64,000 nt of DNA from Candidatus Gemmiger faecavium. GTDB taxonomy: Bacteria > Bacillota > Clostridia > Oscillospirales > Ruminococcaceae. The position numbers were made by a program, and so were the translations under genes. Positions 59,979 to 63,056 of the stretch are shown piece by piece. The stretch lies in contig DXFO01000022.1 of the NCBI GenBank assembly GCA_019114415.1, forward strand, positions 12,470-76,469, written 5' to 3'. Every line of letters begins with the position of its first letter. The stretch's first letter is position 1. A model generated the notes under the pieces. That model was not told the origin of the DNA, did no database searches, and saw only the letters and a program-made list of their open reading frames with translations.

Positions 59979-60623
59979 ATGGAATTTCAAATCATAGACC
60001 AACAAGCCTGGCCCCGAAAAGAATACTTTGACCACTACTTTTCGGCTGTTCCCTGCACATACAGCATCAATACCAAGCTGGACATCACCGCCATTTTACA
60101 AAAAGGCATCAAGCTGTACCCTGCCATGCTGTACGCAATCACCACCATCGTAAACCGCCACAGTGAATTCCGAACCACTTTAACACCCGATGGCGAAGTG
60201 GGGGTGTTTTCCGACATGATACCCTGCTACACGGTTTTTCACAAGGACAACGAGACATTTTCAAACCTCTGGACGGAGTATCATCCCCGGTTTGGAGACT
60301 TTTTGCAGGCCTACCGGCAGGACCTGGAACAATATGGCGATATCCATGGAATGGAGCCAAAGCCCGGCACGCCGGCGAATACCTTTCCGGTCTCCATGGT
60401 TCCCTGGGTCACCTTTGACGGGTTCAATCTGAACCTGCAGAACGGTTACAATTATCTGCTCCCGATTTTTACCATGGGGAAATATTATACCGATCAGGAA
60501 CGCTGCCTGCTTCCGCTGGCCATTCAGGCTCACCATGCCGTCTGCGACGGGTTTCATGTCTGCCGTTTTATCAATGAATTGCAGGAGCTGATTTCGAAAG
60601 AAGAAACCTTTGCAGACGCCTGA
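59979..60623 (+). CDS. cat: Type A chloramphenicol O-acetyltransferase (CatP/CatD-like)
   Basis: 'W.RKEYFDHY', 'PCTYS', 'KLYPAMLY', 'NRHSEFRT', 'SMVPW', 'PIFTMGKY', catalytic 'HHAVCDGFH'. Confidence 0.92.
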   Translation: MEFQIIDQQAWPRKEYFDHYFSAVPCTYSINTKLDITAILQKGIKLYPAMLYAITTIVNRHSEFRTTLTPDGEVGVFSDMIPCYTVFHKDNETFSNLWTEYHPRFGDFLQAYRQDLEQYGDIHGMEPKPGTPANTFPVSMVPWVTFDGFNLNLQNGYNYLLPIFTMGKYYTDQERCLLPLAIQAHHAVCDGFHVCRFINELQELISKEETFADA

Positions 60624-60725: not shown

Positions 60726-60776
60726 AAAAACAGAGATCTTCACCGGCAGAATCAGCTGATGAGATCTCTGTTTTTT
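60726..60776 (+). terminator. Terminator between cat and the MarR gene
   Basis: aaaaacagagatct...agatctctgtttttt. Confidence 0.75.
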
Positions 60777-60839: not shown

Positions 60840-60886
60840 TACTTGACTTAGTCAAGTAAAGAGCCTATACTTGACTAAGTCAAGAA
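60840..60886 (+). promoter_or_regulatory. Sigma-A promoter overlapped by two 19-bp palindromes (candidate MarR/BilQ operator)
   Basis: TACTTGACT-T-AGTCAAGTA (60840-60858) and TACTTGACT-A-AGTCAAGAA (60868-60886); -35 TTGACT (60843-60848) -17 nt- TATACT (60866-60871). Confidence 0.88.
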
Positions 60887-60904
60887 AAGGAGTTGACTGT
60901 TTTC

Positions 60905-61357
60905 ATGTTTCAAACTCTGGCCTATTACGCCACTGTATTCCATCGCAGTTTTGTCGGCTACACCACAGAGCGGCTTCAAACGCTGGGGTTGAACTTCGGG
61001 TCACTGTTTCCGGTCATTTACGTCGGCAAGCACCCTGGATGCACCCAGGCAGAGCTGACCGCGGCCCTGCATCTGGACTGGGGCTACTCCCAGCGCTGCA
61101 TCACCAAGCTGGTAGAGACCGGGTTTCTTACCCGGGAAAAATCCTCGCGTGCTTATCACCTGAACCTGAGCGAAAAGGGCAAGGAAGCTTTTGCGGCAAG
61201 CCATCAGGTCTTTTTCGATTGGGATGCCGAAATGCTGACGGCTCTGGACGAAACGGAACGGGAACAGCTGTTCTCTCTCTTGACAAAAGTAATCCGGAAA
61301 GAAGCAGAATCCTCATGTATGAAACGATCCAAAGCCCCTTCAACTACGGAGGGCTGA
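60905..61357 (+). CDS. bilQ: MarR-family transcriptional regulator (BilQ-like)
   Basis: wHTH pattern 'HPGCTQAELTAALHLDWGYSQRCITKLVETGFLTR...LNLSEKG'; first gene of a MarR-OYE-flavodoxin triad. Confidence 0.82.
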   Translation: MFQTLAYYATVFHRSFVGYTTERLQTLGLNFGSLFPVIYVGKHPGCTQAELTAALHLDWGYSQRCITKLVETGFLTREKSSRAYHLNLSEKGKEAFAASHQVFFDWDAEMLTALDETEREQLFSLLTKVIRKEAESSCMKRSKAPSTTEG

Positions 61358-62427
61358 CGCTGAAAAATCGCATCCTCTTTGCCCCGACCAGCCTTGGGCT
61401 GTCCCAGGAGGAAACACTGGAACGGCTGCGCAGCATTGCAGCCGGCGGCTGTGCCATGATCATTGTGGGAGACGTCCCCGTCCTGCCCCATGGATTCGGG
61501 CCTTCGCTGTACACCAAAAAAGGGCAGGCCTACTACCGTGCCATGGCAGACGCCGTTCATCCTTACGGCTGCAAACTGTGTGCACAGCTGCACCAGTCCG
61601 ACTCCGATCTGAAAGGCATGATCCGATACATCCCCGGCGTGCTGACCAAACGGATCTCCATGGAAGAGCTTCGTCCTTTGCTCAATCAGCAGGTAGGGCC
61701 TTACATCACCGGTTTGTCTGAGAAAAAGATTCACCAAATCACCGAATCTTTCGGCCAGGCGGCAGAGCTGGCTTTGCAGGCCGGATTTGACATGGTACAG
61801 GTCCACGGCGACCGGATGTGCGGAAGTTTCAGCTCTTCCCTGTTCAACCACCGGACCGACTGCTACGGCGGCAGCCCCGAGAACCGGGCCCGGTTTGCCG
61901 TGGAAGCAGTCTCTGCCATCCGCCGCCGGTTTCCCGAACTGCCCATCGATTACAAACTGGCGATTCGCCAGGAAAACCCGCACTACGGAAACGCCGGTGT
62001 ACTGGAAGAGGAACTCCCGGTTTTTGTTCCGCTTCTGGAAAAAGCCGGGGTCACCAGTTTCCATGTGACACTTGCCAATCACGGTGAGTTGAGCGATACC
62101 ATCCCGCCGAAAAGCCATCCCGAATTTGGCGGCGAAGGCTGCTTTTTGAAATTCTGCGACGAAGTCCGCCAGCTGACCCGCTTACCCGTCTGCGCCGTGG
62201 GCGGTCTGACCGATCCCGATTTCATCGAGCAGCAGCTGGCCTGCGGGCGGGTGGATTGCATTGCCATGAGCCGACAGCTCACCGCCGATCCCCAGTGGCC
62301 CAACAAAGTCTGTTCCGGGCGCGTCCGGGAAATCCATCGCTGTGTCCGCTGCAACAAGGAATGTCTCGGCGGCATGATGGCCCATCGGGGCGTCCACTGC
62401 ATTTATGAAAGGAAGGAAACCAAATGA
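61315..62427 (+). CDS. bilR: Old Yellow Enzyme-family flavin oxidoreductase with HGDR motif: bilirubin reductase, short form
   Basis: 370 aa from ATG 61315; 'LKNRILFAP', 'GFDMVQVHGDR', 'NHRTDCYGGSPENRARF', 'AVGGL', 4Fe-4S motif C-x2-C-x3-C-x11-C at the C-terminus. Confidence 0.85.
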   Translation: MYETIQSPFNYGGLTLKNRILFAPTSLGLSQEETLERLRSIAAGGCAMIIVGDVPVLPHGFGPSLYTKKGQAYYRAMADAVHPYGCKLCAQLHQSDSDLKGMIRYIPGVLTKRISMEELRPLLNQQVGPYITGLSEKKIHQITESFGQAAELALQAGFDMVQVHGDRMCGSFSSSLFNHRTDCYGGSPENRARFAVEAVSAIRRRFPELPIDYKLAIRQENPHYGNAGVLEEELPVFVPLLEKAGVTSFHVTLANHGELSDTIPPKSHPEFGGEGCFLKFCDEVRQLTRLPVCAVGGLTDPDFIEQQLACGRVDCIAMSRQLTADPQWPNKVCSGRVREIHRCVRCNKECLGGMMAHRGVHCIYERKETK

Positions 62428-62945: not shown

Positions 62946-62971
62946 GCCCCGGCCTTCCGGCCGGGGCTTTT
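62946..62971 (+). terminator. Terminator after bilS
   Basis: gccccggcc-ttcc-ggccggggc-tttt. Confidence 0.85.
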
Positions 62972-63056
62972 CTGTATCAACCAAGGTATTATCTGCTTTC
63001 GCTTTTGCTGCGCCTTCGGTGTTGCCCGACAAACGAGGCAAAATCCCGTCTATCGG

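Follow-up and report, generated by a model that had tools for sequence, protein, structure and literature searches.

Twin palindromes over the bilQRS promoter as putative operators of the MarR-family regulator BilQ

MarR of Escherichia coli is the founding example of its family. It represses its own operon through dimers bound at marO sites I and II, which lie over the -35/-10 region and near the ribosome-binding site, and small ligands relieve this repression. The arrangement proposed here for BilQ is similar, in that dimers would occupy two palindromes in the promoter from which the operon of the regulator is transcribed. However the half-site sequence differs between marO and the BilQ sites, and the mar operon carries resistance functions whereas the bil operon carries a reductase system. 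The NCBIfam MarR model scores 24.7 bits with the BilQ of C. difficile (cut-off 240), and gives no match with the BilQ of the window, i.e., the 64,000-nt stretch of Candidatus Gemmiger faecavium DNA analyzed here. FabT, a MarR-family repressor of fatty-acid synthesis, recognizes a palindrome of the TTGA...TCAA type with a shorter spacer and has a multi-operon regulon; in contrast, the BilQ sites are confined to the regulator's own system. FabT is the third-best NCBIfam match of BilQ, with 24.5 bits against a cut-off of 200.

The nearest described analogue of the BilQ operator appears to be that of MexR, which recognizes GTTGATCCAGTCAAC and GTTGACCTTATCAAC, a pair of boxes located in the promoter region of its own gene, between mexR and mexA of Pseudomonas aeruginosa (10.1101/2024.04.02.587325). 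The MexR boxes PI and PII, of the form GTTGA-N5-TCAAC, and the BilQ sites, cTTGAC-N3-GTCAAg, have a TTGA-N5-TCAA geometry in common. The MexR boxes are 31 bp apart and predicted to be on the same DNA face, whereas the BilQ sites are 28 bp apart, an offset that goes with a 17-bp promoter spacer. In addition, MexR acts between divergent genes and controls an efflux pump, whereas the BilQ sites lie in a single promoter for regulator, reductase and flavodoxin. MexR is not a close relative of BilQ and is absent from the PDB and NCBIfam matches of BilQ.

Bilirubin reduction by gut bacteria was assigned to a gene only in 2024 (PMC10769871). The activity, which reduces bilirubin to urobilinogen, was demonstrated for the enzymes of C. 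symbiosum, C. difficile and R. gnavus, with the BilR clade defined by the motif HGDR (PMC10769871); a related vinyl reductase, BilV, has AHAH in its place (PMC13252198). BilQ is named in Hall et al. (PMC10769871) and the corresponding preprint, as a MarR family transcriptional regulator, and no other naming was found in the literature searched. The bilQRS operon of that paper has the same three genes as the window, in the same order and with a short-form BilR with HGDR; BilQ appears there without a binding site, ligand or regulatory data, and the operator presented here is new information. The author of the earlier note was not aware of a described BilQ site, and the literature search likewise found no description of a binding site, a ligand or regulation for BilQ, nor of how bilR is switched on in the gut. 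Mechanistically the BilQ operator would be a textbook case, well supported by the comparisons below and not surprising.

The gene names proposed for the window are borne out, as all three proteins score above the NCBIfam equivalog cut-offs (Table 1). The remaining NCBIfam matches of BilQ are all to MarR-type models, and PDB chains of the MarR family are matched with a best E value of 6e-9. In Pfam, BilQ is slightly below threshold for both MarR_2 (26.6 bits, threshold 27) and MarR (23.2 bits, threshold 24.6). BilR is an OYE TIM barrel with PF00724 as its sole Pfam family and a VHGDR motif in the translation. It is 48% identical to the BilR of C. difficile, and its bilirubin reduction is predicted from sequence. 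The three genes are on the same strand, overlap, and have terminators on both sides. The overlap of bilQ and bilR (61315-61357) is 43 nt, compared with about 25 nt in most relatives, and the bilR stop codon overlaps the bilS ATG (ATGA, 62424-62427). These overlaps suggest translational coupling along the operon.

Table 1. Features of the bilQRS locus, with positions given in the window.
Feature	Position	Strand	Basis or remark
Intrinsic terminator after upstream cat gene	60726-60776	+	-24.4 kcal/mol, z = -4.4, followed by U run
Site 1 (distal operator, putative)	60840-60858	.	TACTTGACTTAGTCAAGTA; perfect 19-bp palindrome
-35 hexamer TTGACT	60843-60848	+	Consensus scan
-10 hexamer TATACT	60866-60871	+	Consensus scan; shares its last two bases with the start of the site 2 core
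Site 2 (proximal operator, putative)	60868-60886	.	TACTTGACTAAGTCAAGAA
Predicted transcription start	60877-60879	+	Inferred, 6-8 nt past the -10
Shine-Dalgarno GGAG of bilQ	60889-60892	+	Sequence; AAAGGAG kept in orthologous leaders
bilQ, MarR-family regulator, 150 aa	60905-61357	+	NCBIfam NF045593 equivalog, 159.8 bits (cut-off 125)
bilR, short-form bilirubin reductase, 370 aa	61315-62427	+	NF045592, 556.5 bits (cut-off 425)
bilS, flavodoxin-like, 160 aa	62424-62906	+	NF045594, 226.2 bits (cut-off 155); PF12641, E = 1e-51
Operon terminator	62946-62977	+	9-bp all-GC stem, then T run (terminator scan)

The two palindromes that had been pointed out upstream of bilQ, with starts 28 bp apart, can be read directly from the sequence. 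Site 1 is a perfect 9+1+9 palindrome, TACTTGACT-T-AGTCAAGTA. Site 2 reads TACTTGACT-A-AGTCAAGAA; its 7+1+7 core (60870-60884) is perfect and there is one outer mismatch. The 15-bp cores of the two sites are reverse complements of each other, with T at the center of one and A at the center of the other, and in each 19-bp palindrome the centers of the half-sites CTTGAC and GTCAAG are 9 bp apart. The degenerate core, CTTGACTWAGTCAAG, has no exact matches in the window other than sites 1 and 2. With up to three mismatches it has 6 matches in the window against 0.69 expected, a number reached in none of 100 shuffles. Across the 2.55-Mb assembly there are three exact copies of CTTGAC-N3-GTCAAG, sites 1 and 2 among them, whereas base composition predicts 0.12. 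The third, together with all 13 one-mismatch matches, is within open frames of at least 245 codons. The twin palindromes are confirmed as real and are not a product of chance. A contig from a chicken-gut metagenome carries a strain variant, T>C at 60876, which changes the variable center of site 2 from TAA to CAA, a form found in many relatives, and leaves the half-sites intact.

The consensus scan also agrees with the placement of the palindromes in the earlier note, with the -35 TTGACT contained in site 1, and with site 2 beginning inside the -10 TATACT and spanning the predicted start and early leader. The predicted promoter has a 17-bp spacer and matches the consensus at 10 of 12 positions. 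The palindromes end 19 nt upstream of the bilQ ATG (60905). In four public RNA runs from chicken gut and other gut sources the locus corresponds to assembled contigs with no readable 5′ ends, and the start site is a predicted one; one of these runs looks like DNA, with the intergenic region and the upstream gene evenly covered. The terminator between this gene and the promoter is matched in stability by none of 200 shuffles in RNA folding, and would insulate the bilQ promoter from cat read-through. The upstream gene itself (59979-60623) is an intact type-A chloramphenicol acetyltransferase (Pfam CAT, E = 2e-79).

A scan upstream of other bilQ genes, the check proposed along with the original observation, finds the motif at nearly all of them. 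The BilQ of the window was searched against one genome per species, which gave 80 loci with 47-80% protein identity, mostly from Oscillospiraceae and Ruminococcaceae; a second scan, seeded with the BilQ alignment, added 27 non-redundant loci, and the total is 108 species-level loci. With up to two mismatches allowed in the 12 positions of each site, and within 200 nt upstream of bilQ, a pair of sites is present at 83 of the 108 loci and a single site at 22. The offset within the pair is 28 bp at 74 of the 83 loci, 27 bp at eight and 29 bp at one. At the same loci, the DNA upstream of bilQ (21.5 kb) contains 143 exact matches and the other 618 kb contain 1. Three of the 108 loci have no site within 200 nt; one of these is on a truncated contig, and at the other two a site is found farther upstream, ahead of an inserted first gene. 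In the latter two the operator-bearing promoter is 0.7-1.5 kb upstream of bilQ (L058:1519 and L145:1419), and the extra gene is an ORF of 483 aa in L058 and, in L145, one of 215 aa with a lipoprotein-like product.

The 120 nt upstream of 75 orthologous bilQ genes were aligned with MAFFT, with the motif not used as a guide. Mean column identity in the alignment is 29%, and columns with no variation, or almost none, are those of the four half-sites, the -10 and the start codon; there are no other conserved intergenic columns. Half-site columns, including those of the right half-sites GTCAAG, are at least 90% conserved. In the -10, T82 is invariant and A83, T84, C86 and T87 are almost so (alignment columns). 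Columns within the sites carry 1.3-2.0 bits of information, compared with about 0.1 bits for those directly next to them; the three central bases of the sites are A/T-rich and variable. At 24 of the 83 pair loci the center triplets of the two sites are reverse complements of each other, against 9.5 expected from shuffling, which shared ancestry could explain.

It should be noted that the promoter by itself would account for part of the conservation of the left half-sites, given that the -35 consensus is TTGAC and that site 2 borders the -10. The independent conservation signal is that of the right half-sites. This bears on the possibility that there is no protein operator at all, and that the pattern reflects promoter conservation with symmetry that arose by chance, or else a structure formed by RNA or DNA, for example a leader hairpin or a cruciform. 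The coincidence of the left half-sites with promoter elements is in line with this, as is a third TTGAC at 60893-60897, 3′ of the Shine-Dalgarno sequence, for which pairing with the GUCAA of site 2 is conceivable in the leader. However the strongly conserved GTCAAG half-sites are not promoter elements, and two exact 15-mers 28 bp apart compare with 0.12 expected per genome. The third TTGAC is found at only 15 of 90 loci and is confined to the closest relatives, the predicted fold of the leader RNA is no more stable than shuffles (z = +0.79), and no more than about half of site 2 would be in the transcript. A leader hairpin as the explanation is rejected on the fold and the 15 of 90 count, and an origin of the palindromes without any protein operator is considered exceedingly improbable.

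The reading preferred here is that the twin palindromes are BilQ operators and that dimers at both would repress the regulator's own promoter, i.e., bilQRS autorepression; comparative genomics strongly supports the earlier suggestion that they serve the adjacent MarR regulator, and this reading is very probably correct. The sites, the consensus promoter that they overlap, their strong conservation and their occurrence together with bilQ are observed, whereas we infer BilQ binding, a stoichiometry of two dimers, repression rather than activation, the start site and a ligand. In the proposed mechanism, one BilQ dimer would bind each palindrome, with its recognition helices reading the inverted TTGAC and GTCAA half-sites in a recognized core of tACTTGAC-W3-GTCAAGt. 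A dimer on site 1 would block the -35, and a dimer on site 2 the edge of the -10 and the +1 region. Occupied sites would exclude RNA polymerase, with bilQ, bilR and bilS repressed together in negative autoregulation, and some signal that lowers the DNA affinity of BilQ would turn the operon on. The 28-bp offset is about 2.7 helical turns and would place the dimers on different DNA faces, and thus a cooperative contact between dimers is not obvious. The offset may simply be tied to the 17-bp promoter spacer.

The sign of the regulation should also be considered. BilQ could bind the same sites and yet be an activator, or have a dual role, instead of acting purely as an autorepressor. Activators do occur in the MarR family, and about a third of the loci have the distal site only, over or slightly upstream of the -35, where activation is conceivable. 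However the sites in the window and at most loci overlap the -35 and the predicted -10/+1 region, which is a geometry of steric repression, and a promoter so near to consensus should need no activator. Activation by BilQ is thus judged unlikely, and autorepression from both palindromes is kept as the working model.

The operator extends to BilQ proteins that are much more divergent. In loci anchored on BilR, with a BilQ only 30-43% identical to that of the window, the twin TTGAC-N3-GTCAA is still placed on the -35 and the -10, with the outermost base relaxed; carriers include Hungatella hathewayi, H. effluvii, an Anaerorhabdus MAG, Erysipelotrichaceae MAGs and others. In a further 42 non-redundant loci with an adjacent bilQ, at least one site is present at 41 and a pair at 19. 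One-site BilQ loci make up about a third overall, and the twin layout is common, not obligatory. When 400 evenly sampled genomes of the class were searched for BilR, only two carriers were found, too few for a control set; the C. difficile locus came from this search. The BilQ of C. difficile is 24% identical to that of the window, yet scores above the same BilQ equivalog cut-off. Its promoter has TTGACT at the -35 and GTTGATATAGTCAAA right after the -10, and these sites are invariant in four genomes of the C. difficile group. Three loci (L174, L186 and L227) have operators with GTCAG(A) in place of GTCAAG, and all three encode a BilQ whose recognition helix reads 'GHTTRSIDKL', a pattern that could come from protein-DNA covariation or from one shared lineage.

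The earlier note also offered the motif as a means of finding a wider regulon. In this 2.55-Mb genome there is no other intergenic copy, and the remaining near-matches are inside long open frames; the regulon here would be the bilQRS operon itself. In 80 relatives the genome-wide motif counts equal those of the reversed-pattern control, and only two of these relatives, besides this genome, have exact pairs 28 bp apart. The expectation thus fails for the present genome and holds for some others, where the motif marks an unlinked bilR or bilRS.

Such unlinked genes are informative. Among nine bilR loci without an adjacent bilQ, twin sites are directly upstream of bilR in four and absent in five. 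The nine genomes were searched with a BilQ alignment profile. All four with sites at the unlinked bilR encode a strong BilQ elsewhere (154-216 bits), and these four bilQ genes have twin sites of their own in three cases and one single variant site in the fourth. All five with a siteless bilR give only weak, generic MarR matches (49-56 bits). Unlinked bilR(S) and bilQ that both bear the operator would form a natural BilQ regulon of two promoters. Separate genes of this type are found in Faecalibacterium sp. An122 (L189 with L159/L247), Subdoligranulum sp. UMGS795 (L221 with L069/L249) and two further genomes (L184 with L248, and L207 with L250). In F. gallinarum a separate bilR has its own pair of sites. 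A Faecalibacterium MAG has divergent bilR and bilQ genes with back-to-back promoters that each carry a twin operator, and four palindromes fall within 130 bp (L130:120-245). Loci that have only bilQ and bilS, or bilQ by itself, carry the operator as well.

The motif thus follows the regulator and not the enzyme across unlinked and divergent loci, as would a true operator of that regulator, which is hard to reconcile with conservation of the promoter only or with another factor. The latter would be a global or local transcription factor that binds the palindromes, with BilQ recognizing something else. TTGA-type inverted repeats are common to several regulator families. However the motif is confined to bilQ-associated promoters, with one intergenic locus in this genome and background counts in the 80 relatives. 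Sites at an unlinked bilR occur only where BilQ is encoded (four of four versus none of five), and the motif persists with bilQ across several Bacillota families. The GTCAG-variant operators that all go with one recognition helix add a possible covariation. Binding of the palindromes by another factor is judged highly unlikely, and BilQ is retained as the protein that would bind both sites.

The earlier note proposed bilirubin or a related ligand as the signal that releases BilQ. In M. gnavus bilR is induced by bilirubin, the one published case (10.64898/2026.06.10.731317), and bilQ is absent from the R. gnavus operon that Hall et al. show (PMC10769871). Bilirubin or a close bilin can be proposed as the inducer of BilQ only tentatively. 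The proposal is weakened because 20 of 22 genomes with bilQ and bilS, or with bilQ alone, have no BilR-like gene (E <= 1e-50). Oscillibacter sp. PC13 and Gemmiger formicilis An723, both isolates, belong to this group. Of the two exceptions, one encodes just a long-form HGDR enzyme that is unlinked and lacks an operator. Nine regulators sampled from the bilQ(+bilS) genomes all score above the BilQ equivalog cut-off. Since carriers that lack BilR pass the BilQ model, the unit of BilQ, operator and BilS is independent of the reductase, and the signal of the family may differ from bilirubin. It is conceivable, with some reserve, that BilQ, the TTGAC-W3-GTCAA operator and BilS are an older, self-contained module for another redox, flavin or tetrapyrrole-related signal, into which BilR was recruited, either between bilQ and bilS or in trans at unlinked promoters. 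If so, in many genomes that are unable to reduce bilirubin the NCBI name 'bilirubin utilization transcriptional regulator' is an over-annotation. BilQ-type regulators with the same operator are in any case common in genomes without BilR, and a 'BilQ' annotation should not be taken as a sign of bilirubin metabolism. A cysteine in the sequence 'KHPGC', conserved in most BilQ proteins, was considered as a redox or bilin-adduct sensor and rejected; the residue is Ser in one BilQ (L173).

The delimited operator can serve as a reagent in binding and ligand-release assays for what BilQ senses, and as a sequence tag for BilQ-controlled promoters, even where bilR is unlinked from bilQ. The compact pair of repressor and operator could also be developed into a biosensor that reports the inducer.

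The loci with bilQ and bilS only are L026, L031, L047, L060, L062, L075, L079 and L080, and those with bilQ alone are L054-L058, L066 and L069. Five of the bilQ-alone loci, from the Gemmiger/Subdoligranulum group (L054, L055, L057, L066 and L069), have a single variant site, ACTTGACC-N2-GGCAAGT, and TATACTGG. These loci adjoin a convergent gene for a MATE-like transporter and a two-component system. Lastly, three tandem copies of TTGAC-N3-G(G/A)CAA, 31 bp apart, are found near an unrelated MarR gene in genome G481 (L254:1292-1370), and may be another MarR operator array.
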